From Vibrio vulnificus CMCP6 (GTDB lineage Bacteria > Pseudomonadota > Gammaproteobacteria > Enterobacterales > Vibrionaceae): a DNA stretch of 32,000 nt. The first letter of the stretch is position 1, and each line of letters opens with the position of its first letter. The stretch lies in assembly GCF_000039765.1 (NCBI RefSeq), contig NC_004460.2:1230001-1262000 (forward strand), written 5' to 3'. Shown one piece after another: positions 14,343-29,805 of the stretch. Below the pieces are notes generated by a model, which was not told where the DNA came from, did not search any database, and worked only from the letters and a program-made list of their open reading frames with translations. Both the position numbers and the translations under genes were made by a program.

Positions 14343-15005
14343 TTATTTGGCACACTGTGTTTTTCCCATATCCTCATCGCGAGATACTTTACACAACATT
14401 AATTTCTCGCTATTCATCGCTTGAGTAAAGTGACTTCCTGTTGGATTTCCTTTCAGAACAATATTGGTTAGTTCAGTTATTTGAGATTGTGTCAATGTTT
14501 CATAATCGACATTATAATTTGCGATAATAGGGTTCTCAACACCCTTCTGATAGCAGAATCCGTTAATTGTAGCACCATAAATCGTAATATTTGTATTCGT
14601 GTACTTTCCATCAACTGAAATATCCGTTGTACATACTATCGCACCTTGTGATTTTTCATCATTGTCTGGCGTGCGAGGTAAGCTTGCAAACAGTTCAAAG
14701 TTATCGCTAGTGCGTACCAATCGATACCTTTGAACATTGTGATCCCAAAAACCGGTATACGGAAGGTTTGTTTTATAGCCCCAGATTTCTGCTAAATCCA
14801 GAGTACCAGTGTAGACCAAGTCATTACATGTGTTCTGGAAGAAGTGGTAACTGTTGCGGTTAACTGAACTGTCTGTCACTTGAACTACTTTTGTGTCAGC
14901 AGCGCAACTTCCATTACTAGAACGCCCGTCTGCCGAACTACTGTCACCTGAACCACACCCATACAACATCCCCATGGTGGCAAGAACTAACAAGCCATGT
15001 CTCAT
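14343..15005 (-). CDS. Cys-rich putative lipoprotein, unknown function (island cargo)
   Basis: The N-terminus is MRHGLLVLATMGMLYGC, followed by GSGDSSS, which is a lipoprotein-like linker. The Tyr at lipobox position -2 is atypical. Coding is AT-rich and I recognise no family. Confidence 0.55.
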   Translation of the reverse strand: MRHGLLVLATMGMLYGCGSGDSSSADGRSSNGSCAADTKVVQVTDSSVNRNSYHFFQNTCNDLVYTGTLDLAEIWGYKTNLPYTGFWDHNVQRYRLVRTSDNFELFASLPRTPDNDEKSQGAIVCTTDISVDGKYTNTNITIYGATINGFCYQKGVENPIIANYNVDYETLTQSQITELTNIVLKGNPTGSHFTQAMNSEKLMLCKVSRDEDMGKTQCAK

Positions 15006-15516
15006 TATTTTTCCTCATTCTGACGTTAGAAGAATTATAAAATAGGGTGAACATTACAAACGTCAAATAAATCTTATACAAAAAAATCAGTATTAAACAG
15101 CTGTCACACTTGGTAGGCTACGTAAAGTTAACCCGATCACACTCTGCGCAATAAAAATAGATTTCCAACTTGAGTAAAAATACAAAAAAACAATTAAAAA
15201 CCACTAATTTAACATGTTATTTTTTTGATAAAACTGGTTAAACTCTAACTATTTGTTGTTATTTAATCACAACAAAAAGTTAACTTTTAAACATGTAAAG
15301 ATAAATTCAACACTTCATACCATAATATTTAGGTCAATTCTTTCCTATCAAGATTTCTAATAATATAAAAGTACCTACCCCTTTTATTGCCTTATAGTAA
15401 AAACAACATTACTGAATAACTAAAATATCAATAAGTGACAAGGAGAAATTAAATTTTAACTTTCTTAATTAGAGAGTTCTTAATATGTTGTCTATACAAA
15501 CATACCGACAATCTAT

Positions 15517-15855
15517 GTGCAGCACTGCCTAGGAAAACACGCTCTTTCTGCGCTATCAAAGGCAAAATTACCTTACATATCGGTATTAGCCGATCAAACT
15601 TTTGGTGGTGTTTCTGCGAGTTTGGCAATGCTGGGTGACATTAACATTGGTGAGCCCAAAGCAAGGATCGGCTTTGCAGGGCGTCGCGTTATTGAACAAA
15701 CCGTTCGCGAAATCTTGCCTGAAGGCTTTCAGCAAAGTGAGTTCCTCTTAGAGCACGGCGCACTCGACATGATTGTGGATAGACGCGAGATGCGTAAACG
15801 AATTGGTGGGCTATTAGCAAAAATGACAAACACAACACTCTCAACAAATGAGTAG
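15517..15855 (+). pseudogene. accD: 3' fragment of an accD paralogue (acetyl-CoA carboxylase carboxyltransferase beta subunit), 5'-truncated
   Basis: [86 protein letters not shown] is collinear with roughly the last 110 residues of E. coli AccD ([70 protein letters not shown]). The zinc-ribbon and N-terminal two thirds are missing. There is no credible start, only a GTG inside AT-rich DNA. Conserved Pro residues are substituted (DPT to DQT, GPRV to GRRV). Confidence 0.75.
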
Positions 15856-15936
15856 CTTATCTGTTTTCACTAACCTAAGCGGGCAATGGTATGCTCACTG
15901 ACTGAATCATGAAGATGGTATAAAGGGAATAAGCTA

Positions 15937-16968
15937 ATGCTCTATATTCGGAATGCTATATACACATTGGGCTTGGTGGCTTTTTCTGCCAATGCGTTTG
16001 AGGGAGAGAGTTTTCAGCACAAAGATTGGTATCTCGCTTGTGATAATACAGGCACCTGCCGAGCGGCTGGCTATTCAGATACAGACACCCTTAATCCTGT
16101 TGCTGTGATGTTTACCCGTGAAGCAGGCCCTGCAACGCCAGTAACAGCCAAAGTGTATCTGGGAGACGAATCTGATTTCGATCCTTGGCCTGAGCAGATA
16201 AATCTGTATATCGATTCTCAGGATTTGGGGCCGATAAAGCATGACATCCTAACAGCTATGCAAGTTCAAGCCCTTCTCGCTGTGGTGACCAAAGATTCGC
16301 TGATAGAAATTGGTGATGGTAAATCCAACTGGGTACTGTCTGGCAATGGTGCTAGTGCGGTGTTTCGAAGGATGGATGAATATCAGGGGCGTCAGAACAC
16401 TCCATTTGCCATTGTCGCAAAAGGGCAGAGCGCTGAGTCCAAGGTGATCCCTGCTGCGGATCTCCCCACACTGGTGAATGTTGGCGGCGATGCAATAATG
16501 AAATCGCTTGAACCAGAATCTGCTCAGTACGCCAAATTGTTACCACAACTTCGTGCGACCTATCAGGATGAGGGAGACAGCACTGAGTGCGGCAGGCTGT
16601 TTGAAGAGTCGCCTTCAATCTCTATTGCAAAGTTTAATAACGGTCAATCATTGATTGAAGCATCTTGTTGGATGGCAGCTTATAACTATGGTTCAAGCTA
16701 CTGGTTGTTGGATGAAGGCGAATCTGCTCTTCCCAAACTCCTTAATATCTCCGGCAATGACTATTCTGACGGCATCGTTTCTTCGGCTCACAAAGGTCGA
16801 GGATTAGGGGATTGCTGGAGCTTTGAAAGCTGGGTGTTTGATGGCAAAACAATGGTTCGTTCGAACGACAGTACTACCGGTTTATGCCGTGGCATCGCCG
16901 CAGGAGGCATTGACCCAATGCCTATCTGGGTGAGCGAAGTGGTTGTCGCACAAGATTTGAATAAATAA
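15937..16968 (+). CDS. Secreted DUF1176-like protein, unknown function
   Basis: A signal peptide (…FSANA-FEGE) followed by DWYLACDNTGTCRAAGY and a conserved-Cys pattern, which I recall as typical of DUF1176. This family call is pattern-based only. Confidence 0.6.
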   Translation: MLYIRNAIYTLGLVAFSANAFEGESFQHKDWYLACDNTGTCRAAGYSDTDTLNPVAVMFTREAGPATPVTAKVYLGDESDFDPWPEQINLYIDSQDLGPIKHDILTAMQVQALLAVVTKDSLIEIGDGKSNWVLSGNGASAVFRRMDEYQGRQNTPFAIVAKGQSAESKVIPAADLPTLVNVGGDAIMKSLEPESAQYAKLLPQLRATYQDEGDSTECGRLFEESPSISIAKFNNGQSLIEASCWMAAYNYGSSYWLLDEGESALPKLLNISGNDYSDGIVSSAHKGRGLGDCWSFESWVFDGKTMVRSNDSTTGLCRGIAAGGIDPMPIWVSEVVVAQDLNK

Positions 16969-17840: not shown

Positions 17841-17934
17841 TTTTTATCTCGAATCGAACGTGGTAATTGATTAAAAAAGCGAGAACCATTTCATTTGGCT
17901 ACTCGCTTTTATCATGCTAAAGACCGGTATTAGA

Positions 17935-18961
17935 TGTGTGATTCATAGAGATGGTTTCAATTTTCTTAGCTGAAGATCGAGCTTGTAATTCTGCTCTTGA
18001 AACCGCTCTTTCTTGATCTGGTAGTGCTGAGATACCTCTTCAGACAAAGGAGTTTGATCAGATATCTCAGTAATCCTGTCTATCGGGGTTAGTCCATTTA
18101 AAGAGCTGTGGGGCCGTTCCCAGTTGTAGTAGTGTTGCCATTCAGCTAGTAGCAGATCCAGTTCTTCCAGCCCCACAGAGACATCTATGGTCGGATAGAA
18201 CTCACTTTTATCTGTTTTCTGCGAGCGTTCCACTTTGCCATTCAAGTGAGGTGAGCCAGGCTTATTTGGGCGAAACTTGATCCCATAAATCATGAGTTGT
18301 TTCTGGACTTTCTCAGCAAAGAATTCACGCCCTCTGTCCGTCTGAATACGCTGGATAGGAAATGGCATCTCTTCCACGACACAATCGATAAAGTCGACTG
18401 TATTTGCTGCTGTACGCCGAGAGTAGCACCTTAGAACCCGATAGCGAGAGCAGTCATCAATAGCTGTATACTGATAAATTCCAGGCGCTATTTTACAGGT
18501 GTCCATTTGGACTCTATCACCAGGAATTGGGCGCTCATATCTTTGGAAATCTTTTTTGCGTCGGTAAGTTACGATGGGTTTGACTGATGCTTCGGATAAA
18601 ACTTTATGGAGTGTCGCGGTGCTTAGGTGTATTTGGTGAAGTCGGATTAATTCCGTTTGTAAACGCCGCGCCCCTAAATTGCGTTTCTGACGCATCGTAA
18701 GGATCAATGCTCTTAGCTCATCAGTGACTTTGGTATCTGGGGATGAATAAGGGCGTCTGCTCTGGCTTTCCAGACCAACGATTCCAGACTGCTTATATCG
18801 CTTAGCCCACTTACGTAATGTTGGTCTGGAAATACCACAGCGTCGACATACGAGGCCTGCATCACCACATTCCTCATACATTTTTACCCACTGTAGTCTT
18901 TGTTGGATTTCTCTGTCCATAAACACCCAGTATAGTTGAAAGGATGTCTATGAATCACACA
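17935..18961 (-). mobile_element. Intact IS481-family insertion sequence (1,027 bp) with a 7-bp target-site duplication
   Basis: The terminal inverted repeats are TGTGTGATTCATAGAgAT (17935-) and its complement ATgTCTATGAATCACACA (-18961). The direct repeat TATTAGA lies immediately outside both ends, at 17928-17934 and 18962-18968. The element holds a single DDE transposase ORF. Confidence 0.85.
17943..18926 (-). CDS. IS481-family DDE transposase (HTH + rve integrase core)
   Basis: An N-terminal HTH (CGISRPTLRKWAKRYKQSG) is followed by the rve core with the DDE triad context (VQMDT, YTAIDDCSR, IQTDRGREF, GKVERSQKT, YNWERPHSSL). Confidence 0.9.
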   Translation of the reverse strand: MFMDREIQQRLQWVKMYEECGDAGLVCRRCGISRPTLRKWAKRYKQSGIVGLESQSRRPYSSPDTKVTDELRALILTMRQKRNLGARRLQTELIRLHQIHLSTATLHKVLSEASVKPIVTYRRKKDFQRYERPIPGDRVQMDTCKIAPGIYQYTAIDDCSRYRVLRCYSRRTAANTVDFIDCVVEEMPFPIQRIQTDRGREFFAEKVQKQLMIYGIKFRPNKPGSPHLNGKVERSQKTDKSEFYPTIDVSVGLEELDLLLAEWQHYYNWERPHSSLNGLTPIDRITEISDQTPLSEEVSQHYQIKKERFQEQNYKLDLQLRKLKPSL

Positions 18962-19042
18962 TATTAGAGCTTCACAATCACGTCTACTCTTTGTCTTTCT
19001 TCAGTAGATACCTATTCTAGTAATTCACTAAAACTGACCACG

Positions 19043-19118
19043 TATATAGAGTTTTTCCATACTTTTGGTCATGCGTACAGAGTCACGACTGACGCCGTTG
19101 GTAACACGAAATTGCCCC
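19043..19118 (+). repeat. Direct repeat copy 1 (76-bp core), on the left flank of the kinase module
   Basis: It is identical to 21306-21381 at 71 of 76 positions. It contains a conserved imperfect hairpin, GCGTrCAG-agtcacga-CTGACGC. Weaker similarity extends about 17 bp to the left (ACTAAAA). Confidence 0.85.
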
Positions 19119-19354
19119 ATTCCTTGTTTCGACCGATTCAACACAGCTATCGCCAAAGCTTCATTTGACTTATTTTTTCTAATCTAGCTATGTGACCAAA
19201 CTAAGTGTGCCACTACAGTTCAAGAATGAATGTATAGAAACCACTCCGAGCGCAACTTATTGCAGTGCAATCTCATGATATTTTTCTTGTACGTAATATG
19301 GTTTTTTATTATTGTTTCGCCCAACTTATAACCACAAATAACTATCAGATTCAC

Positions 19355-19816
19355 ATGAATACTTTAGGCTTAAGAGCTTCTCCTAGTACTGTATACTTTT
19401 GCGTCTATGATTCTACAGATGACTCAATTATAAACCTCGAACAAATAGCTATCCCCAATGTTTTTGAAACTCCAGAAAAACTCAAATACCTGAGAATCAC
19501 AATTCTAGATATCATCCGTGAATACGAGGTACAAAAAGCTGGGATTCGTTTAAGCGAACCTCACCCTAAGGCGAAACCCAACGTGACCCGTATTCAATTT
19601 GAAGGAATTATTCAAGAGGCTTTCGCCAGTAGTAGCCTGCAATCGTACTTTCGAGGAACAATAGTCACTATTGCTAGCCACCTAGAACGCCATTCGCGAG
19701 AAATTAAGCCATTGATTGAAGGAACACAAACTATTGAACATTTGGACGATTGGTCTGACTACTCCAAGGAAGAGCGAGAGTCGATCTTAGCAGCAATGGG
19801 GGCAAAAAATGCTTGA
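19355..19816 (+). CDS. Hypothetical protein with an RNase-H-fold-like pattern (YqgF/RuvC/DUF3010-like); gene A of the kinase operon
   Basis: From the ATG at 19355 the protein reads MNTLGLRASPSTVYFCVYD...SIINLEQIAIP...EKLKYLRITILDIIREYEVQKAGIRLSE...RIQFEGIIQEA. This reproduces the beta1-3/alpha1/beta4/alpha pattern of YqgF- and DUF3010-type proteins (compare LIKEYEVEKIVVGLP). The position of the first catalytic Asp is Arg (LGLRA). The stop overlaps the kinase start (ATGCTTGA). The GTG at 19265 used by the track adds a low-complexity extension that I discount. The fold call is inference only. Confidence 0.55.
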   Translation: MNTLGLRASPSTVYFCVYDSTDDSIINLEQIAIPNVFETPEKLKYLRITILDIIREYEVQKAGIRLSEPHPKAKPNVTRIQFEGIIQEAFASSSLQSYFRGTIVTIASHLERHSREIKPLIEGTQTIEHLDDWSDYSKEERESILAAMGAKNA

Positions 19817-20855
19817 TTACACTGTAGCAGAGGTAAGATTTGATGAACTCGGGCGAATTGGGGATGAAGGGCGAAACTCCGTTGTCCTGAAAGTTCGAGA
19901 TGTTTGCTTAGACGCCATCATGGCAGTTAAGAAAATAAAAAAAGGCAGTAGAGCATTACCTAATCCAGCCGAGTACTTCAATGAAGCTAGGATTTTATAC
20001 GCAAATCCACACCCTTATGTTGTTCAAGTGAACTATGCTTGTGAGGACAGCAGTCATGTTTATATTGCTATGCCTTTATATAAGAATGGTTCATTGAGCA
20101 AGTATATGAGCGAGCGTTATCTCACTCTCGGTGAAATCGTCCGTTTTTCATGTCAATTTTTATCTGGCTTACACAATATCCATTCAAACCAACTGATTCA
20201 TTTCGATATCAAACCTGACAACATCCTATTATCAGACCGGAATGAAGCTATGTTGTCCGATTTTGGCTTAGCTAAGTTTTCTGATGAGGATGGCTTTGCT
20301 ACTCCAAACCAGTTATACGGCACACACATGCCTCCAGAAGCATTTGAAGGTGGGGAATATACAAACCTACTAGATATTTACCAAGCTGGTTTAACAATGT
20401 ATCGCATGTGTGTTGGTAGTGATGAATTTAAACGTCAAGTAGATACTTTCCGCGAGCCTGACGGCACGCTAGGTCATACTTTTATTCAAGCTGTTCAAGC
20501 AGGTGATTTCCCTGCAAGAAATGCTTTTCCTGCACACATACATAGTAAAGTTAAAAACGTAATTACTAAGTGTATGTCTCCAGACCCCGATGACCGATAT
20601 ATGTCAGCCATTGAAGTCGTAAATGATCTATCTTTTGTTGATGAAAGCTATTTCCCTTGGCAGTATAGTATTGACGACGGTGTGCGAAAGTGGGAAAAAA
20701 ACACTAGTTCGAATGGAAAAAAGTGTATAGAGTGGCACCCTGACTCTAGCTCAGTCGCCTACACTATAAGTGTAGGGCAAGTAAGAAAAGCTAACTCAAA
20801 GTACACTAAAGACCGCTTAACTATTACGGAGTTGAGAAGATTTCTGAAGGAGTAA
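19809..20855 (+). CDS. Soluble Hanks-type (eukaryotic-like) Ser/Thr protein kinase, non-RD type; gene B of the kinase operon
   Basis: All catalytic subdomains are recognisable: a degenerate G-loop IGDEGRNSVV, K41 in AIMAVKK, E59 in FNEARIL, the catalytic loop HFDIKPDN (D133, K135, N138), DFG (D151), a PPE (APE-like) motif, DIYQAG and DPDDRYMS. There is no signal peptide, TM segment or PASTA domain. A C-terminal extension of about 80 aa has no family I recognise. Confidence 0.9.
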   Translation: MLDYTVAEVRFDELGRIGDEGRNSVVLKVRDVCLDAIMAVKKIKKGSRALPNPAEYFNEARILYANPHPYVVQVNYACEDSSHVYIAMPLYKNGSLSKYMSERYLTLGEIVRFSCQFLSGLHNIHSNQLIHFDIKPDNILLSDRNEAMLSDFGLAKFSDEDGFATPNQLYGTHMPPEAFEGGEYTNLLDIYQAGLTMYRMCVGSDEFKRQVDTFREPDGTLGHTFIQAVQAGDFPARNAFPAHIHSKVKNVITKCMSPDPDDRYMSAIEVVNDLSFVDESYFPWQYSIDDGVRKWEKNTSSNGKKCIEWHPDSSSVAYTISVGQVRKANSKYTKDRLTITELRRFLKE

Positions 20856-20858
20856 CTT

Positions 20859-21026
20859 ATGGATAAACCTACTCAATCTAGAAACAAAAACTTTAAAAAC
20901 AGAGCATCCCTTACTAGTAGTAAAACAAATCTGTCCTACAAAGAAAGAGTTGCTAAACGTGCGAAAAGTAAAGGAATTACAGCCGATCACTTATCAAAGA
21001 GTGACTATTTCGTAACACTTAGCTAA
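20859..21026 (+). CDS. 55-aa basic, Ser/Thr-rich peptide; putative gene C of the kinase operon (not in the ORF track because it is under 60 aa)
   Basis: The ATG at 20859 lies 6 nt after a strong SD (GAAGGAG) that overlaps the end of the kinase gene. The product is MDKPTQSRNKNFKNRASLTSSKTNLSYKERVAKRAKSKGITADHLSKSDYFVTLS, with 13 Lys/Arg against 4 Asp/Glu and 14 Ser/Thr. The stop lies 8 nt before a rho-independent terminator. Confidence 0.5.
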   Translation: MDKPTQSRNKNFKNRASLTSSKTNLSYKERVAKRAKSKGITADHLSKSDYFVTLS

Positions 21027-21033
21027 GTCTTGG

Positions 21034-21054
21034 AAGCCCCTTATTGGGGCTTTT
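21034..21054 (+). terminator. Rho-independent terminator closing the kinase operon
   Basis: AAGCCCC ttatt GGGGCTT followed by TTTT. Confidence 0.7.
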
Positions 21055-21305
21055 GCGACTTAATGGATACAGCAGATCCAGTAATCTTAAATAAATGTGT
21101 AGATGTTCTACTCTCCAACTTTGCTTGTACTTCCAACGAAACTAAGCCCCCGAAACTTGTAATGTACTGGCTTGTAGGAAGCTTTAAACAATTATGGCTC
21201 ATTTTGAAGTCATCCCAACCGGTGATTGTTCTCCAGTTTTAAGTACGTAGTTCTGCTGTCTCTTCCTTGGTTGATCAGCAACTGTAGTGGTCAACTAAAA
21301 TTGGC

Positions 21306-21381
21306 TATATAGGGTTTTTCCATACTTTTGGTCACGCGTGCAGAGTCACGACTGACGCCATTGGTAACACGAATTTGCCCC
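21306..21381 (+). repeat. Direct repeat copy 2 (76-bp core), on the right flank of the kinase module and abutting the integrase remnant
   Basis: It matches copy 1 (19043-19118) at 71 of 76 positions. The integrase fragment starts 14 bp downstream. Confidence 0.85.
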
Positions 21382-21394
21382 TAAGTTTGTTAGG

Positions 21395-21660
21395 CGGGGG
21401 AAAGCTAAAGCTCGCATCGATCAGTTGACGAAGTTGGAACTAGGTGAGCCTGCGCATGACTGGCGTTTCCATGATCTTCGAAGAACCCTAGCCGCAGGTT
21501 TGGTTTTTTAGGTGTTCGTACTGAGGTGATCAAGCGAGTTCTTGGTCGTGAGGCTTCTGCAAATGATGTTACCTCAACTCACTACCTCTGGCACAATTAC
21601 GACAACGAAGCGCTAGAGGTAGTAGAGTTGTGGAATGGCTACTTAGGCAGGTTGTTTTGA
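21395..21660 (+). pseudogene. Tyrosine recombinase (phage-type integrase) C-terminal remnant, 5'-truncated and frameshifted
   Basis: Frame 1 reads AGKAKARIDQLTKLELGEPAHDWRFHDLRRTLAAGLVF and then a stop. After a shift of frame in the T-run near 21505 it continues LGVRTEVIKRVLGREASANDVTSTHYLWHNYDNEALEVVELWNGYLGRLF and then a stop. This is the box II region of tyrosine integrases (HDLRRT ... catalytic Tyr in THY). Roughly 300 N-terminal codons are absent. Confidence 0.75.
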
Positions 21661-22737
21661 GTTATTGGCTGGTATCACTTCAGGGTTCAGTAACTTGCCC
21701 GAAGTTTTATCGACTTGCTGCCAGTCCCCGATTTGTACATCGAACCCTGCATTGGCGACCTCTTGTGCAATGGCTTTTAAGTATTCTTTATCTGTTTTAA
21801 AGTCAGCCAACTTGAAGATCTCTCGACCAAGTTGGCTGGTGAGAAGAACATTAAATCCAATTTTTTTCTTGGGATCTGCATGTCTAGCAACTAAACCACT
21901 GTTTTTGCTTGTGAAAGCTCTTACGAATCTAGATGAATCTAATGAAGTGTACTCAGTAGTAAGACCCATAGAGTCTACGCCGGAGATGATTCCTATTTCT
22001 TGAAGGTAAAGTAGCTTGGTGAAGTTTAACCCCTTTTCAGCCATCATTTTTTCAACGGTATCGGATTCATTTCCAAGTCCTCTAGGATCAATAACACCTT
22101 GGAAAACTCTACCATCAATTATGAACTCACCGAGTTTACTAATCAGCTCCGCTTCATTCTTTGACAGGCTTTTGAGTAAGTCGAGTGTGCGTAGAGAGTA
22201 AGTTCCCGGAGTGGTAACCTCCCCCGCGAGAACCTTCGCCCACAATGTTTGTAAATAATCATTACTGACTTTTTCTGCGTTGTCTCGCCAGCGAGTGAAC
22301 CAGTCAGGATCTACTGGGTCATCATTAGCTTCATATTTACCTGATTCAAGTTCTTGCTCGGCTAGCAACACTGTCTTGGTGAGATTCACTTCTTCCTGCA
22401 TCGCCTGAATCTGTTTGCGAGTCTTGCCTTGTCTATCCAGATTTTCCAAATTCAGGTATGGCTCAACTCTGTTGCCTTTCTGAATTTCAACTAACTGTTC
22501 TGCATTTGCTTCGGAATCAACGGCAATAAGTCTACGATCTTCAGTATATTGCAATTTGCCTGCTTTGATATCGGCTATCTGTTGCTCAGTCTGTGCGATC
22601 ATAAGCATCTCATCGCGTTTGGCGTCGACCTCGGCCTTGCCTACTCTCTTGATTTGGTTAGGGGCAAAGATACCTCCAATTCCATCGGATACTAAATCAC
22701 CCAACTTCATCAATGCTTTTTCACCGGGCCAACCCAT
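21643..22737 (-). CDS. DUF2806 family protein, unknown function; often phage- or island-borne
   Basis: The N-terminal charged helix is GGIFAPNQIKRVGKAEVDAKRDEMLMIAQ. The central motif DPDWFTRWRDNAEKVSNDYLQTLWAKVLAGEVTTPGTYSLRTLDLLKSLSKNEAELISKLG matches DUF2806 as I recall it. Its 3' end overlaps the integrase remnant. Confidence 0.7.
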   Translation of the reverse strand: MGWPGEKALMKLGDLVSDGIGGIFAPNQIKRVGKAEVDAKRDEMLMIAQTEQQIADIKAGKLQYTEDRRLIAVDSEANAEQLVEIQKGNRVEPYLNLENLDRQGKTRKQIQAMQEEVNLTKTVLLAEQELESGKYEANDDPVDPDWFTRWRDNAEKVSNDYLQTLWAKVLAGEVTTPGTYSLRTLDLLKSLSKNEAELISKLGEFIIDGRVFQGVIDPRGLGNESDTVEKMMAEKGLNFTKLLYLQEIGIISGVDSMGLTTEYTSLDSSRFVRAFTSKNSGLVARHADPKKKIGFNVLLTSQLGREIFKLADFKTDKEYLKAIAQEVANAGFDVQIGDWQQVDKTSGKLLNPEVIPANNSKQPA

Positions 22738-22933
22738 GCATGTCCCTCAATACAATATAATACCTTGATTAGTAATTACTTTAACATGGTTTCTTGAAAA
22801 GTGAACAAGATTTGATTGTAAGCATTACCCCTGTAGTGGATGAGTGATTTTGGTCACTCAATTAGTTTTTTTGCAACACCCCAAATAATCCGTTAAATGC
22901 TAATTTAGCAAAGTCACTGGCACGTTTATGTCC

Positions 22934-22965
22934 AAAAACGAGTTAGATCATCTATCTCTAACTCG
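22934..22965 (-). terminator. Rho-independent terminator at the end of the chemosensory/partner-switch operon; first clearly core element after the island
   Basis: The minus strand reads CGAGTTAGA-gatagatga-TCTAACTCG (a 9-bp stem) followed by TTTTT. It lies 12 nt downstream of the DUF342 stop codon. Confidence 0.7.
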
Positions 22966-22976
22966 CTCGCACATCG

Positions 22977-24650
22977 CTACACTGCGACGTCCTCTTCTTC
23001 TAAGGTTGAGGAGACTTTGATTTCGTATTGGTTGAAGCTAAAGATGCTGCCGCCGTGGGTGCGCTTGGTGATCACTTGTTCATCGCCAAATTGGACGGTC
23101 ACACGGGTGAAGACTTTTTCCGTCGCTTCTACGGTGTTGAGTTCCAGTAAAGCGTTGAACTCGGCATCGAGGGTTTCTAACTGGCCTTTAACGGCTTCCA
23201 GTTTGGCGTTGTTTTCTGCCTTCATTTGCGCGATGGCTTCTTCCATGCCCTCTTCGCGCTGCGATTTCGGCGTTTTCTTAAATTCGAGTTCACGACGGAT
23301 GACATCCATCGTCTCTTCTTGGGCAAGCTTGTATTGCTCTTTCAGGGAGGCGATTTTGTCTTTGTAGGCACTAAAACGGGCGAAGGCTTCCACTTTGGTG
23401 GCGGTATCCCCTTCCACACCCAGTTGAACACAACGCACTTTGCCACCCACCTTGGCCACGCCACCGCTTAAGGTACCGTTACGCTCATTGGCGTCGATCA
23501 CCAGCAAATCGTGTCCACAGCGAATCTCGTTGTTAAAAGAGTGCACCGCAAGTTCAATGTTGCCACCGGCTTGTAGCTCGCTGTATTGGGCGTAGTTAGC
23601 AACAATTTTGCCTTTAGTTTTGACCGAGCAACTGCGTGGCTCACCGTCGCTAACGGTGTGGCCAATGATGCCTTTGCCCACTTCAATGTCGCCTTGGGCT
23701 TGAACATCGGCCGATTCGATAAACCCGCCCACGGTAATAGAGCCTGTCGCACGTACCATCATGCCAGCTTCAATATCACCAGAGATCACCACATTGCCTT
23801 TGAACTTCACGTGCCCCGTGCCCACACCAACGTTGTTCAAACAGAGTGCACTGTCCACTTCGATGGTTTTTTCTTTGATGAGCGGCATGCCCGATTGGCT
23901 AGCAATAAGAAGATTCGGATCGTAGGAAGCGATTTCCGTGCCTTTGCCGGGTTTGAGCAGGGCATCTTTGCCTGCTTGAGGAGGAATGATTTTGCCTTGA
24001 ACGGTAAAGCCTGGAGTGCCTTTGGTTGCAGGTTCACGGCGCATCACTTCATCACCTTTATCAACGGTGATGGTGGCCCCGAGGTTACGCATATCGATTT
24101 TGGCGTTCGCGGATTTGCCTTTTTCCGGCTTCAACACACGTTTGGTAATGTCTTCCACCAGAGGCACAAACTGAGCATCTTTACCTTTGATTGGCTGTTT
24201 GCCCTGCGCTACCGGTTGGACAAACTCTTCGCCGGCTTTGAGTTGGTTACTCACCACCAACACTTTTTTCAGCGCCAACTTGTTGATGCCTTTGGTGACG
24301 CGAGCTTGAGCCAAGGCATGCACAATTTCACTGCCGCGCAATCCACGGCCACCATACGCGCCAGTGACTTTCATGCTGGCCAGCATGTCGTTGTCGGTGA
24401 GATCCACTTCAATTTGTGCATTAAGACGCTTGGCGATGACGATGCCATCATACGCTTCGGCCTTACGCTCTCGCGCACAGTTGAGAAAGCGAACGACTTC
24501 TGCATCATCAAGATAAAGCTCTGCGCCTTCCATCTCAGCGATGACGGCATCCAATTCTTTTCTGACGAGCTCACTCCCCAAATCAGCCTCAGGCAATTTG
24601 GCGGTAATTTCAGTCTTCTTTTCGTTCCATGAAAGGCAGAGTTTCCACAT
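22977..24650 (-). CDS. DUF342 (FapA-like) family protein
   Basis: A long beta-helix-like Gly-rich repeat region (GNVVISGDIEAGMMVRATGSITVGGFIESADVQAQGDIEVGKGIIG...) is followed by a C-terminal coiled coil. This is the typical DUF342/FapA architecture. Confidence 0.8.
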   Translation of the reverse strand: MWKLCLSWNEKKTEITAKLPEADLGSELVRKELDAVIAEMEGAELYLDDAEVVRFLNCARERKAEAYDGIVIAKRLNAQIEVDLTDNDMLASMKVTGAYGGRGLRGSEIVHALAQARVTKGINKLALKKVLVVSNQLKAGEEFVQPVAQGKQPIKGKDAQFVPLVEDITKRVLKPEKGKSANAKIDMRNLGATITVDKGDEVMRREPATKGTPGFTVQGKIIPPQAGKDALLKPGKGTEIASYDPNLLIASQSGMPLIKEKTIEVDSALCLNNVGVGTGHVKFKGNVVISGDIEAGMMVRATGSITVGGFIESADVQAQGDIEVGKGIIGHTVSDGEPRSCSVKTKGKIVANYAQYSELQAGGNIELAVHSFNNEIRCGHDLLVIDANERNGTLSGGVAKVGGKVRCVQLGVEGDTATKVEAFARFSAYKDKIASLKEQYKLAQEETMDVIRRELEFKKTPKSQREEGMEEAIAQMKAENNAKLEAVKGQLETLDAEFNALLELNTVEATEKVFTRVTVQFGDEQVITKRTHGGSIFSFNQYEIKVSSTLEEEDVAV

Positions 24651-24871
24651 ATAGACGGTCGCTTACTACAACTAAAATAAAAATTCTTGAACCAGTCTAA
24701 CTAATTAACGATCCGGTGAAAATCGGCAAAAGAGAATAATCGGGCTCACATCACTAAAGCAAAAAACACCCTTATTCACGCCAATTTTGTGACGAGTTGA
24801 CGCATTTCCGACATCTCTTTTTACACTGTAAATCGGATGCCTTGCCGTCAACGCATCACCGTGATCTCGGT

Positions 24872-26548
24872 CTACAACTGGTAGGTTGCGGTCACGCACT
24901 TCCCGCCATTACTGTAAACGACTGATTCACAAAGCTCATTGAGCAGAATTCGTCCACGCCCATGCAGTTGACTTTCTTGCACTTGTTGCACCGGGTTACT
25001 GTAATCAAACCCTACTCCGTTATGCTCTATTATTATAGCTAGCAAAGTGCGTTCCGGCTGGTAGTCAAATTGGATGGAGAGGTAAGCGTCTTGACTAAGT
25101 TGTTCGAGTTTTTCTTCTCGCGCTTGGTAGTAAACAAAGAATCCGTCGGCATCTTCTTTGAGCTTCGAATCGAGCTCAAGTAAACCGTGGTCGATGGCAT
25201 TCGCCAATAGCTCAGAAAGCACCGAACAGATGAGATCCAGATGAGGTCCGCCACTCACTACGCCTTTAAGAATGGCGCGTAAATCGGGCAGCAGATGATG
25301 AGAAGCGATTTGCGGTTTGTTCAGCGTTAAGCAGCTCTTTAGTGGCAGTTGCGATAAGAGTTGTGGATCGCAACGTGTCTGCTCACTTTCTGGCGACGCT
25401 GAAACAATGGGGCATTTCAGCGTCAGTATCGATAAGTCATCGTGACGCTGACGACAAGAAAACGCCGCCACCGCCTTTTGCAGCGCCTTGATGATGTCGT
25501 AAGGATGCTGTTCAATCACACGCAACAAGCGCGTTTCACCAAACTGTTCGCCTTCTTCGTTTGGCGATTCAGTGACGCCATCGGTGTATGTGATGATCGA
25601 TTGCCCTTCCAGTAACTCAAAGCTGATCACGCTGGCATCAAACTCTCGCTCTTCTAACACGCCTAGCGGCATGTGCGTGGAGGTTAGGCGCTCTGCCACT
25701 GAACCATCGTGATTAAGCAAAAAGGCATCTGGCAAGCCACCACCCCACCAGCGAATATGACGTCCGTTACCGCTGATTTCAAACAAGCTGGCCGCGAGCA
25801 TCATCCCCATGGGAAGAAAACGCACCAGCGCACTGTTGATTTCACTGACAATCTCGCCCAGCGCCATCCCTTTTGCCGCCATGGAGTTAAACGCTCGCGT
25901 CGCAGGAATGGCCGAAATCGCCGCAGGCAAGCCATGCCCAGTTGCATCGGCAATCATGGCGTATATGCCGCCGTGCGGTCTGCGAGCCAAGATGATCAAA
26001 TCGCCATTAAACACGGTTGAGGGCGAAGAGAAATAGTCGACGCCCGAGACGACATCAAGGCAGCCTTCCATCTCTTGTTTGAGGTTGGCAAAAATGCTTT
26101 CTGCGATGGTGTAATCGTAGCGGACTTGTTCATGAAAATGGCTCAACTCTGAGCGCTGTTTCGCCACTTCGTTATACATTTTGGCGATGCGCACATGCGC
26201 CTGAACTTTGGCCAGTAACACATTGCGCTGCACGGGTTTGGGAATGAAGTCATCGCCAAAGGTTAGGCACTTACCGAAGGATTCTTGATCGTCGAGCGCG
26301 GTGAGGAAGATGATGGCGATATGCCGATTGGGAAAAGCTTCTCGGATGATTTGCGCGGTCTGAAACCCATCCAGTTCCGGCATCATCACGTCGAGCACGA
26401 TCACATCAGGCAGCTCGTTGACCTCTTGCAGCGCCGAAATCACATTCAGGCCACTGTTAAAGGTGCTGATCCGGGCATCGAGATCGCTCAGCATCATCTT
26501 ACACACTTCAATATTGCTCGGATGATCGTCGACGATGTAAATCTTCAT
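24872..26548 (-). CDS. Three-domain response regulator, REC + PP2C/SpoIIE phosphatase + HATPase (RsbW-like anti-sigma kinase); CrsR-like partner-switch protein
   Basis: REC domain: MKIYIVDDHP...VIVLDVMMPELDG. PP2C domain: GDLIILARRPHGGIYAMIADATGHGLPAA...TDGVTE. HATPase_c domain: LSELLANAIDHG...HNGVGFD...GRGRILLNE. Confidence 0.85.
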   Translation of the reverse strand: MKIYIVDDHPSNIEVCKMMLSDLDARISTFNSGLNVISALQEVNELPDVIVLDVMMPELDGFQTAQIIREAFPNRHIAIIFLTALDDQESFGKCLTFGDDFIPKPVQRNVLLAKVQAHVRIAKMYNEVAKQRSELSHFHEQVRYDYTIAESIFANLKQEMEGCLDVVSGVDYFSSPSTVFNGDLIILARRPHGGIYAMIADATGHGLPAAISAIPATRAFNSMAAKGMALGEIVSEINSALVRFLPMGMMLAASLFEISGNGRHIRWWGGGLPDAFLLNHDGSVAERLTSTHMPLGVLEEREFDASVISFELLEGQSIITYTDGVTESPNEEGEQFGETRLLRVIEQHPYDIIKALQKAVAAFSCRQRHDDLSILTLKCPIVSASPESEQTRCDPQLLSQLPLKSCLTLNKPQIASHHLLPDLRAILKGVVSGGPHLDLICSVLSELLANAIDHGLLELDSKLKEDADGFFVYYQAREEKLEQLSQDAYLSIQFDYQPERTLLAIIIEHNGVGFDYSNPVQQVQESQLHGRGRILLNELCESVVYSNGGKCVTATYQL

Positions 26549-26562
26549 ACCCGCTCCGCCTG

Positions 26563-26862
26563 TTACTCGATGTGGAATTTTTTATCGAAACGACTGATCA
26601 ACAAAATTTTGCGCACTTGCGGTAAGGTGTTGATGATCTTTATTCGCCCATCGGCACTGTTGAGATGTTTTTGCATGTTGAGCAACATGCCAAGCCCCGC
26701 ACTATCAATGTAGTCTACTTTGCGTAAATCGATAATAAACTGGCTATTGAGGTGCTCGGTGTAAGCGTTTCGAAACTCTTGCACCAAGTTAAATCCAAAG
26801 GCCCCTTCTATTGCTAAGGTCACCGTATTGCTTGTTTTATCGACTTCTTTCATCACTGACAT
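26563..26862 (-). CDS. STAS-domain anti-sigma-factor antagonist (RsbV/SpoIIAA/CrsA-like)
   Basis: A 99-aa protein with the phosphorylatable-Ser motif context VDYIDSAGLGMLL. It sits directly upstream (5') of the PP2C/kinase gene in the same operon. Confidence 0.85.
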   Translation of the reverse strand: MSVMKEVDKTSNTVTLAIEGAFGFNLVQEFRNAYTEHLNSQFIIDLRKVDYIDSAGLGMLLNMQKHLNSADGRIKIINTLPQVRKILLISRFDKKFHIE

Positions 26863-26902
26863 CTTGCCTTCCCCTAGCTGAGCCGTTGTTGATGGTAAGC
26901 CC

Positions 26903-28075
26903 TTAAAAGAGCTCTACCTCGCCTTCATCAATACTGACTTGATTCGCCGCCCCTTCGCCACGCCCTTGTTCTTGTCGTTCCAATAGCTCAACCTGTTGGA
27001 TCAGATCGTCGCTGCTGATTTGGCTCGCGGCATGTTGTTTGATCAATTGCTGAAGCGCTTCAACGTTCTGCATAGTGTGAGAGGCAAAGTCCCCTTGCTG
27101 AACCACAATATCGGCAAACTGTAACGCTCGGATGCCCGAGGAGACTTTCTGCGCCAACTGAGCACCCAATTCATGGATTTGCTGGACTTGCGCTTCCACC
27201 ATCTCATTCACTTTTTGTACACCGCGCAGCATTTCATCCACTTCTTCCTTAGATTCGATGGCCACCGTCATATCGATAGACGCCATTTCACCCACGGTGT
27301 GATTGGCTTGCTTAACCGTGCTCAAGGCGATGTTAATTTCCCGCTCGATTTGGTTGTTGAGCGATTCCGCTTTGACCGATAAATCACGCACTTCTTGGGC
27401 AACAACGGCAAAACCACGCCCTTGCTCACCCGCTCGCGCCGCTTCTATTGCCGCGTTCAGGGCCAATAAGTTGGTTTGCTCAGAAAGCCCGCGAACTTGA
27501 TTGAGCAGTTTAAACACCGCGTCCAATTTGTCCGACATGTCATGAATACTGTGGACTGCCGAGATGCTTTTCTCTGACACATTGATCAGGATATCGATGT
27601 AGCGATTGATGATTTTTTCCGTTCTTGGCATAACATTGGCGATGCTGTTCTCGCTGTTTTGATTGGCAAGAAGATCGTCCACCAAGCGTTCAGAAACTTG
27701 GCTTTGCTCTTCACAGGTACGCTGTAAACCAAAAAAGCTGTCGTTGAGGGTTTCTACCGAGGCTTCAATAACGCTTCTCTGTTTCGCCAGAGGTTGCTCT
27801 ACGCGAGGAATCGCCGTTTGCAGAAAATGGCCCACAGGCCCCCACGCAGCATCGGCTTTTTTCTCTCTCTCAACACTGGCACTTTCGCTATTTTCATCGC
27901 GGCCCAGAGAAAAAATCGAGGGTAAGACAAACCAAGGAATGGCGGCCGCAATAATCATCAGTGCAATATTGCCCATGGAGTTGGCGATCATTGCGCCAAA
28001 GGTGAGCGCGACGATTTGGCAGAACACCGCGATGAGGTAACGAGTTCGATAACTTGTTTGTGCCGATTTTTCCAT
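26903..28075 (-). CDS. Short methyl-accepting chemotaxis protein with two N-terminal TM helices and essentially no periplasmic domain
   Basis: The highly conserved MCP tip is present: [31 protein letters not shown]. The N-terminal hydrophobic segments are [19 protein letters not shown] and [19 protein letters not shown]. The protein ends in EVELF. Confidence 0.85.
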
Positions 28076-28126
28076 ATTCGCCTACCTGACAAAATCCATT
28101 ATGTAACTTTTTGCTTATGTTTTCTT

Positions 28127-29161
28127 TTAGCTTAGTAGATCGCACAAAAACTGAGGAAGTTTATTGAGTGGTTTGATGTGCATGGCGGCGCCACACTCCA
28201 CCGCAGCCCGCGGCATGCCATACACCACGCAACTCTGCTCATCTTGCGCCACGGTGATGGCCCCTTGCTGCTTCATTTGCAGCATGCCTTGCGCGCCATC
28301 TTTCCCCATTCCAGTGAGGATCACGCCTATCGCTTTGCCTTTTAAACTTTCCGCGACTGAGCCAAACATCACATCCACCGAAGGCTTGTGTCGATTCACC
28401 GCCGGGCTGTCATCCAAATGGGCATACAACTGCCCTCCGCGACGAAACACCATTAAGTGTTTGTCCCCCGGCGCAACGTAGGCATGATTGGTTTTTAAAG
28501 CGACTTCCCCTTGAGTGAGTTCACTGACACTCAACGCACAACTGGCGTCCAATCGGCTGGCAAACGGGCCAGAAAACATCGCGCTGATGTGTTGGGTAAT
28601 CACAATCGGTGGCATGCTGGCTGGCAAGGCTGAGAGCAGATGTTTCACTGCCTCGGTACCTCCGGTGGACGCGCCAATGGCAATGAGCTGATATTGGCTA
28701 GTGGAAACCGCACTGCTGCTGGCCACTGCTGGCGACATGCTTTGATTCGCCCCCACTTGCGCCTGAGCGGCCATGCGGATTTTTTCGTTCACTAAGCTGC
28801 GATAACCCAGCATATCGGCGGTATTGGCCACCGATGGTTTGGGAAAATAATCCACCGCGCCAAGCTCTAAAGCCATCAGTGTCGCGTCTGCGCCATGCTG
28901 GGTGAGCGTTGAGATCATCACCACGGGCAAAGGATGCAGGCGCATTAGGTTTTTGAGAAACTGAACGCCATTCATCTTGGGCATTTCGATGTCGAGAGTC
29001 AGCACATCTGGCTTTAAAGCTTTGATCATCTCACGCGCTTGATAAGGATCTTCAGCCGCGCCGATCACCTCTAATTGAGGATCCGAATTAATGATCTCCG
29101 AGAGCAAGGCTCTGAAAACGGGGGAATCATCCACCACCAAGACTTTAATCTTCTTACTCAT
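28127..29161 (-). CDS. cheB: Chemotaxis response regulator protein-glutamate methylesterase
   Basis: A REC domain ([12 protein letters not shown]...[12 protein letters not shown]) plus a methylesterase domain ([25 protein letters not shown]). The ATG at 29161 overlaps the cheD stop by 1 nt (TGATG). Confidence 0.92.
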
Positions 29162-29805
29162 CAAAATAACTCCACCTCTGAATCGTTATCGGTTTGCTTT
29201 TCCAGGGTATGGGCATAACGCTCTTCTTCACGACGAAGATGATTGATCTCGGCAAAGGGAATGCGTTTCAGCCATGCTTTGCCTGTGAGGGGGTCAAACA
29301 TGATCTTTCTTGGCTCTAAACCACCGAGATCGTACGCCACCACCTCCAACCCTTCTTGCTCGGCGTAATGCAGCACAAACTCGACATTTTTCTCACCGAT
29401 CATCGAATGAAAGCCCATCATCTGTGCGCCGCCAAACAGCTTCATTCGTAAGCGCTCTCGGCGAGCCCCCAGCGAGAGCAATTGATTAAGCAGCATCTCC
29501 ATCGCATAACTACCATAACGAGACGCGCCAGAGAGCAGCTCATCGGCATGCCAATGCTTCTCTTCAAAATGGTTGTGAAACGGCAGCAAAAAGTGATTCA
29601 TGCCCCCAACGCGTTTCACCGGGTCCCAAATGCAGGCCGAAACGCACGAGCCTAATCCGGTGCAAATAAGCTCTTCCTGATCACTGACATACACGCCGCC
29701 GGGCAACACTTTGATCATGTGCAACCCGCGCTGCTCGTTAAAAAATCGGCTGTAATACGCTTCTTCATGGGCTTGAAAATGGTGATTAATTGGGTCGAGC
29801 ATCAT
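29161..29805 (-). CDS. cheD: Chemoreceptor glutamine deamidase CheD, with an unusual acidic C-terminal tail ending EVELF
   Basis: CheD core motifs are present: [57 protein letters not shown]. Confidence 0.88.

Follow-up and report, generated by a model that had tools for sequence, protein, structure and literature searches.

What does a soluble protein kinase do in the company of a small RNase-H-fold protein and a short basic peptide? The question is raised by three adjoining genes (A, B and C) of Vibrio vulnificus CMCP6. They lie within the window analysed here, a stretch of 32,000 nucleotides (nt) of contig NC_004460.2 (positions 1,230,001 to 1,262,000, forward strand); coordinates are counted from its first letter unless another locus is named. 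An initial annotation, made from the letters without database searches, had proposed the trio as an undescribed defence or toxin-type system. Judged by homology and gene order, it instead belongs to the family of the Stk operon of phage 933W, as a member that has left the prophage immunity region and sits on a small cassette. The operon comprises the following elements.

19355-19816, + strand: gene A, 153-amino-acid (aa) open reading frame (ORF), RuvC-fold protein
19809-20855, + strand: gene B, 348-aa ORF, Hanks-type protein kinase
20846-20852, + strand: Shine-Dalgarno sequence GAAGGAG of gene C, read directly from the sequence, within the last codons of B
20859-21026, + strand: gene C, 55-aa ORF, basic peptide
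21024-21062, + strand: operon-closing hairpin, core stem 21031-21055 followed by UUUU, from RNA folding

Layout of the operon

The three ORFs are co-oriented and tightly packed at the positions first proposed for them. The stop codon of A and the start codon of B share 8 nt (ATGCTTGA, 19809-19816), the start of C follows the stop of B after 3 nt, and GAAGGAG sits 6 nt 5′ of the C ATG; the overlap, the spacing and the Shine-Dalgarno sequence can all be read from the DNA as the initial annotation had described them. Homologues of A are 152-153 aa long and can be aligned from residue 1, which supports the ATG at 19355 as the start codon of the gene. The terminator that had been said to close the unit corresponds to a strong hairpin (predicted free energy -22.6 kcal/mol, z = -5.4), which none of 200 shuffled sequences equalled in folding. 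A simple consensus terminator scan did not list this hairpin because its U tract is short (UUUU). The description of the region as AT-rich also holds, with a G+C content of 0.39-0.42 over the trio unit as against ∼0.50 in the flanks. On the 5′ side of gene A lie an insertion sequence (IS) and then a 240-nt non-coding stretch, with no repressor gene.

Kinship with the Stk operon of Shiga toxin phages

A tblastn search of phage records with protein A returned 41 matches, 39 of which fall in Shiga toxin (Stx)-converting phages (933W, phi24B, Min27 and P27 among them). In those phages the A homologues are always found within the immunity region, where the order is pM/pRM - cI - L0084 (DUF3024) - L0083/'res' (153 aa) - stk (348 aa) - L0081 (54 aa) - tM - nutL - N. 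B and Stk are 39% identical with 348 of 348 residues aligned (E 3e-86), the C-terminal non-kinase domain included, and A is 35% identical over its full length to phi24B res and 933W L0083. The Vibrio trio follows the same order with nearly the same sizes (153/348/55 aa, against 153/348/54 aa in the phages). It also has the overlap of A and B, the small ORF directly past the kinase and then a terminator. The hairpin at 21024-21062 corresponds to tM/tRM of 933W and phi24B, where tM is annotated directly after L0081. The traits found on both sides are full-length kinase orthology, a ∼153-aa RuvC-fold gene that overlaps the kinase gene from upstream, and a small ORF with a terminator; B family lengths run from 340 to 350 aa in this comparison. 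An arrangement of XRE repressor, A and kinase also occurs in an E. coli lambdoid prophage.

Three differences set the Vibrio copy apart from that of 933W: (i) it lies outside a prophage immunity region, without cI and without the upstream DUF3024 gene; (ii) it is carried on a 3.8-kb cassette together with a DUF2806 gene; (iii) its C peptide and L0081 are alike in position, size and motifs only.

Within this family, Stk has a reported function. It reportedly mediates abortive infection of phage HK97 (Tyler & Friedman 2004; Friedman et al. 2011), and HK97 gp41 is reported to be its trigger. In papers citing Friedman et al. 2011, stk is described as co-transcribed with cI and as aborting HK97 superinfection (PMC3564112), and Stk as switched on by HK97 infection, with little activity in uninfected cells (PMC3681748). 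A further paper citing that study counts Stk as one of two characterised phage kinases and associates it with HK97 abortive infection (PMC8008677).

The label 'undescribed' consequently does not stand. The trio is homologous to L0083-stk-L0081, and A and B already belong to named PHROG families: A matches phrog_3875 ('RuvC-like Holliday junction resolvase') at 3e-31 and B matches phrog_2361 ('serine-threonine kinase'). For the two partner genes of Stk, no reported function was found in the sources reachable, and neither has a PADLOC, Pfam or NCBIfam model. The literature searched, from which the primary Stk papers were absent, contained nothing relevant on L0083 or L0081. Literature and model searches found no paper or model that treats all three genes as one system.

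The DUF3024 gene L0084, which stands between cI and the trio in the phages (phi24B, locus L088, 2592-2930), matched the PADLOC candidate PDC-S43 at 4e-41.

Conservation of the trio

A pattern scan with one genome per species produced 76 genome loci from alpha-, beta- and gamma-proteobacteria, one cyanobacterium and one myxobacterium. A is followed by B in 73 of them. The three exceptions are a 1.1-kb contig that ends just past A (L062), a decayed copy whose kinase is truncated to 88 aa (L050, 6443-6709) and a locus from which the kinase has been deleted, leaving the C-peptide tail remnant DRFYF (L051, 6468-6686). At none of the 76 loci was an alternative effector seen in the place of B beside A. 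IMG/VR contributed 73 viral contigs, every one with B and the small ORF. The conserved A-B-C synteny for which the initial annotation had suggested a search is therefore borne out by genomes and viruses alike.

Junctions between the genes are conserved as well. The B start overlaps the A stop at 110 of 121 unique junctions, and at 67 of the 121 the overlap measures 8 nt. Nearly all genome loci, and all 73 viral ones, have a small ORF (49-72 aa) behind B, and the start of this ORF lies mostly between -4 and +3 nt of the B stop. The A family comprises 504 clusters at 50% identity; all the members listed are stand-alone proteins, most of them of 150-175 aa. At this level of identity the unit is taken to be conserved in at least 500 clusters. 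Since identical gene order recurs in >140 independent loci, the arrangement is more than chance.

The trio also reaches beyond the groups covered by the genome scan. Bacillus SPbeta-like phages carry a trio of 167/350/60 aa with a kinase 39% identical to B; in phage SPbetaL7 (L091, 3501-5259) the small third protein is not basic. Genes resembling A are found on the Bacillus plasmids NZ_CP031069 and CP020005. Judged by homology and order, the three genes stay together as a unit in groups that range from Proteobacteria to Bacillus phages, and the partners of Stk look obligate. The membership of Stk in such a cross-phylum trio appears to be unreported in searchable sources.

The kinase

B is identical in sequence to AAO08054.1 of V. 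vulnificus CMCP6 and matches the Pfam family PF00069 (Pkinase) at 2.7e-40, with a kinase domain at about residues 10-275. Among the profile libraries it drew generic kinase-domain matches only (mad6, PD-T4-6 and PknB). At 90% identity and below 1e-30, its family comes to 1151 clusters, whose listed members measure 340-360 aa. Across 41 relatives the invariant residues are K41, E59, H131-x-D133-x-K135-xx-N138, D151-F-G, P176-E177 and R263. The catalytic motifs of B are all intact, and the initial description of B as a Hanks kinase with K41 and D133 is upheld, both residues being invariant across the family.

An AlphaFold model of B (pLDDT 90.8) places a confidently predicted C-terminal domain of five strands and one helix at residues 285-347 (window 20661-20852). 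The structural neighbours of B in Foldseek are the eukaryotic kinases AMPK, ROCK, SIK, PLK and CaMKII. Long Foldseek alignments between B and the AMPK alpha subunit may span the C-terminal domain; the root-mean-square deviation is ∼23 Å and the likeness is unproven.

A RuvC fold with an altered active site

Protein A had been called an RNase-H-fold protein, and its structure model bears this out. The AlphaFold model, built with an alignment of 35 homologues, has a pLDDT of 94.5, and the best Foldseek matches in the PDB are RuvC structures over the full length (7w8d, 4ld0, 1hjr and 6lw3; E 8e-8 to 1e-6, TM 0.65-0.73). The likeness rests on the fold search, sequence methods having failed: hmmsearch of the PDB gave 0 matches, and hhalign aligned 27 columns at a probability of 1.9%. 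Pfam, NCBIfam and PADLOC returned 0 matches for A.

The RNase-H-like fold is thus accompanied by a departure from the acidic tetrad of RuvC, whose beta1 Asp is missing. Where RuvC has GID in beta1, A has LGLR, so that the catalytic Asp is replaced by Arg (R7). The motif across the family is [LIM]G[ILVM]R, with Arg at position 7 in each of the ∼109 unique loci that could be scored there; of 12 distant members, 11 have it too. R7, E68 and E142 are invariant in the family alignment, and a conserved basic residue (R/K65) stands at the end of beta4. With Arg all but invariant in place of the catalytic Asp of beta1, A is probably something other than a canonical two-metal nuclease, as judged from the beta1 position of the RuvC tetrad, the only one compared. 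The loss of the first catalytic Asp in a 'resolvase' partner appears to be unreported in searchable sources.

The small basic peptide

C was introduced as a 55-aa basic peptide rich in Ser and Thr, and its composition agrees: net charge +9, with 14 of 55 residues (25%) Ser or Thr. It is annotated as hypothetical in V. vulnificus and had 0 matches in Pfam, NCBIfam and PADLOC. Seventy-one unique peptides from the equivalent position of other loci (median length 60 aa, median net charge +6) were aligned. An N-terminal motif, aromatic-x-x-R-x-x-hydrophobic, emerged together with a C-terminal one, aromatic-hydrophobic-x-aromatic/Leu. The residue after the Arg of the first motif is often Ser, and also Ala, Thr, Glu or Arg.

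A mobile cassette and its surroundings

The Vibrio trio travels on a cassette whose extent and neighbours are as follows.

19112-22937, unstranded: mobile cassette of 3.8 kb (trio, intergenic stretch with the right repeat, DUF2806 gene), delimited by blastn against loci L077-L082
19027-19118, + strand: left copy of an imperfect direct repeat, with the cassette left end at its inner edge
21294-21381, + strand: right copy of the direct repeat, inside the cassette
21643-22737, - strand: DUF2806/TIGR03899-like gene (PF10987 at 3.4e-30)
17934-18962, - strand: IS element with 27-nt inverted repeats (89% complementary) and a 327-aa HTH_32/rve/rve_3 transposase

The IS upstream, the DUF2806 gene downstream and the bracketing direct repeats had all been noticed beforehand, and all were found. 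The repeats agree at 93% over 76 nt (19043-19118 and 21306-21381) and at 88% over 92 nt. The cassette is 99.8-99.97% identical in three genomic contexts: beside an integrase at a prophage end, within a TraH/TraG/TraD/TraI conjugative element, where it lies past a 198-aa recombinase, and flanked by the IS here. This IS, which looks IS481-like, occupies the site where other genomes have an integrase adjoining the cassette. At least 24 contigs encode an identical A protein, and the kinase cluster at >90% identity takes in V. vulnificus, V. anguillarum, V. cholerae, V. harveyi and Photobacterium. The trio moves among prophages, conjugative elements and chromosomal islands. A megablast search of plasmids gave a 97-nt match only.

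The left end suggests an att-type hotspot. In the copies on the prophage and the Tra element, the stop codon of an unrelated integrase lies ∼85 nt before the start of the cassette. At L079 (9081-9677), L082 and L084 (9094-9693), a tyrosine recombinase of ∼198 aa stands alone ∼320 nt upstream of the trio; it accompanies two trio variants only ∼49% identical to each other and may be part of a small mobile unit. An integrase remnant had also been proposed in the window and remains unproven. The frames around 21440-21660 read HDLRRT... and ...VLG..., resembling a tyrosine recombinase, yet the rebuilt peptide had no Pfam match, and tblastn with the two cassette-adjoining integrases was negative.

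Only in the Vibrio cassette does the DUF2806 gene accompany the trio; at the P0031 loci, the phage loci and most genome loci no such gene stands next to it. The gene had no PADLOC match and lies outside the conserved unit.

Relatives elsewhere were found next to defence genes. A 49%-diverged trio in V. parahaemolyticus-type genomes adjoins Gabija-like genes, an MmeI restriction-modification (RM) gene with T5orf172, PIN genes, and a GMT-like island that contains VgrG. Type I RM genes, CapP-like M78 peptidases, a dGTPase, CBASS effectors, Cas8f/TniQ and integrases are among the 136 nearest neighbours scanned at 36 genome loci. The near-identical cassette in three contexts, along with these relatives beside Gabija-like, MmeI RM, type I RM and CBASS genes, agrees with the earlier picture of a self-contained mobile unit in defence and mobile-element surroundings.

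Elsewhere in the window, the stretch 14343-16000 has the lowest G+C (0.34-0.35). A 219-aa ORF there (14343-15005, - strand) had no Pfam or PADLOC match and adjoins DUF1176 and DUF1456 genes. The downstream flank (22977-29805) holds a chemotaxis-like cluster (FapA, a response regulator with SpoIIE, STAS, MCP, CheB and CheD).

Comparison with other kinase systems

The initial annotation had proposed screening the window for known defence systems. PADLOC does return kinase-domain matches for B; it holds no models for A or C. One such match is to PD-T4-6, a Hanks kinase with anti-phage activity whose PADLOC models match B at 1e-37, over the kinase domain only, and match Stk and B equally. Table S2 of Vassallo et al. 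2022 gives PD-T4-6 as a single 436-aa coding sequence (62620-63930), cloned with ∼180 nt of upstream DNA. This is one gene, and the cloned upstream DNA leaves no room for a RuvC-like gene. Identity with PD-T4-6 was rejected, a single 436-aa coding sequence standing against the 348-aa B with two conserved partners.

The MADS kinase MAD6 is both the best PADLOC match of B (4.5e-50) and its best NCBIfam match (113 bits). MADS was rejected in turn: the score falls far below the NCBIfam cut-off of 460, only the kinase domain of a 612-659-residue model is covered, and no partner genes were found among the ORFs scanned at 11.7-24.6 kb. A HipA-type toxin-antitoxin system was set aside, since B belongs to PF00069 Pkinase and a helix-turn-helix partner is absent. 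The GAPS systems of GMT islands, considered since one relative lies in a GMT-like island, were likewise dropped; the paper on them reports no kinase system. In DefensePredictor, the kinases reported are of HipA type only.

Stk2 of Staphylococcus epidermidis (Depardieu et al. 2016) is reportedly a eukaryote-like kinase that a phage protein triggers into abortive infection with broad phosphorylation. Compared by description, it shares with the trio the phage-triggered eukaryote-like kinase and differs in being a single gene without a RuvC-fold or peptide partner. With RuvC itself, A has the fold in common over its whole length; it differs in the Arg at the first catalytic position, in the lack of sequence similarity and in preceding a kinase gene.

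Weighing the explanations

We consider it probable that the trio represents the 933W-type Stk operon in mobile form, with three genes that together exclude phages through a kinase, by abortive infection. Several observations weigh against this. The trait of the phage operon that the Vibrio copy lacks is co-transcription with cI from pRM in the immunity region; no promoter was recognised upstream of gene A, and the window holds no cI-type repressor gene. At 39% identity to Stk, the function of the Vibrio copy may have diverged. C and 933W L0081 show no BLAST similarity, and the 71-peptide alignment finds only motifs in common. Many housekeeping genes stand among the 136 neighbours of the 36 loci, and the other window ORFs scanned, at 11.7-24.6 kb, had no PADLOC match. 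The roles that can be offered for A and C are hypotheses from conservation and residue patterns.

Three other accounts compete with phage exclusion. The trio might be a toxin-antitoxin or addiction module, in which the kinase would be a toxin that stabilises its mobile element and C or A a labile antitoxin, with defence a side effect at most. The compactness of the operon, its translational coupling and the small basic partner would suit such a module, as would carriage on prophages, plasmids and conjugative elements and the loss of the kinase first in the decayed copies L050 and L051. We nonetheless hold it unlikely. The 933W homologue is reported to be phage-triggered and abortive, with little activity in uninfected cells; a small gene in last place and a third conserved gene in first are atypical for type II toxin-antitoxin operons; and B is a Hanks kinase rather than a HipA-type one. 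The addiction account is less an alternative to phage exclusion than a reading that overlaps with it.

A lysogenic-conversion or signalling module, whose kinase would reprogram the host (stress response, virulence, prophage induction) without acting on phages, is less likely still. In its favour, the gene is expressed with cI during lysogeny in Stx phages, bacterial Hanks kinases are often regulators, and the window ORFs scanned (11.7-24.6 kb) include no other known defence gene. The same cassette nevertheless occurs outside prophages and on conjugative elements, with relatives beside defence genes, and stk had no effect on the attaching and effacing (A/E) lesion phenotype according to PMC3681748. 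The distribution is, moreover, patchy and horizontally transferred, with >90% identity over five Vibrionaceae species, and for this reason an accessory conflict gene fits.

Lambdoid phages have their real resolvase (Rap/RusA) located elsewhere. It is very improbable that the trio serves recombination or repair, with A an active Holliday-junction resolvase under kinase control, despite the full-length RuvC fold, the labels 'res' and 'RuvC-like resolvase' in phage records and PHROGs, and the invariant acidic residues E68 and E142. The beta1 Arg found throughout the family and the lack of any sequence signal for RuvC disfavour such a module, and the conserved basic residue at the end of beta4 speaks against it too.

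A proposed mechanism

For the phage-exclusion module that we favour, B would be the effector, inactive in uninfected cells. A phage-made protein or structure would activate it, and active B would then phosphorylate host proteins, leading to growth arrest or death before phage release. A would most likely be a non-nucleolytic partner that acts as sensor or scaffold, and what it recognises might be branched DNA or a phosphorylated ligand. C would most likely bind and regulate the kinase, as an inhibitor resembling a pseudosubstrate or as a substrate and adaptor. Of the sensor/effector system envisaged at the outset, the self-contained unit of intact kinase, RNase-H-fold protein and basic peptide survives, its synteny kept; its novelty does not.

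A bolder version, which we regard as a long shot, is that Stk-type kinases never act alone and that the trio is a three-component immune switch. A nuclease-dead, RuvC-fold A would read a phage cue (branched DNA, a phosphorylated ligand or a phage protein ligand) and free B from a pseudosubstrate-like C, whereupon lethal phosphorylation would follow. If true, this would amount to a DNA-structure- or ligand-gated kinase checkpoint that extends from Proteobacteria to Bacillus phages and was overlooked in the 933W work and in defence catalogues.

Outlook

An anonymous Vibrio cassette is hereby linked to a case of kinase-based phage exclusion that is among the oldest, and that case proves to be a three-gene unit rather than a lone kinase. 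Current tools would call the trio a single-gene, 'PD-T4-6'-like kinase or overlook it, and the 'resolvase' label on A is at odds with an active site that argues against nuclease activity. The family draws its interest from the two uncharacterised partners rather than from the presence of a kinase defence gene. These partners may offer a handle on how a toxic Hanks kinase is silenced and triggered, and the gene trio provides a better signature for defence-system catalogues.

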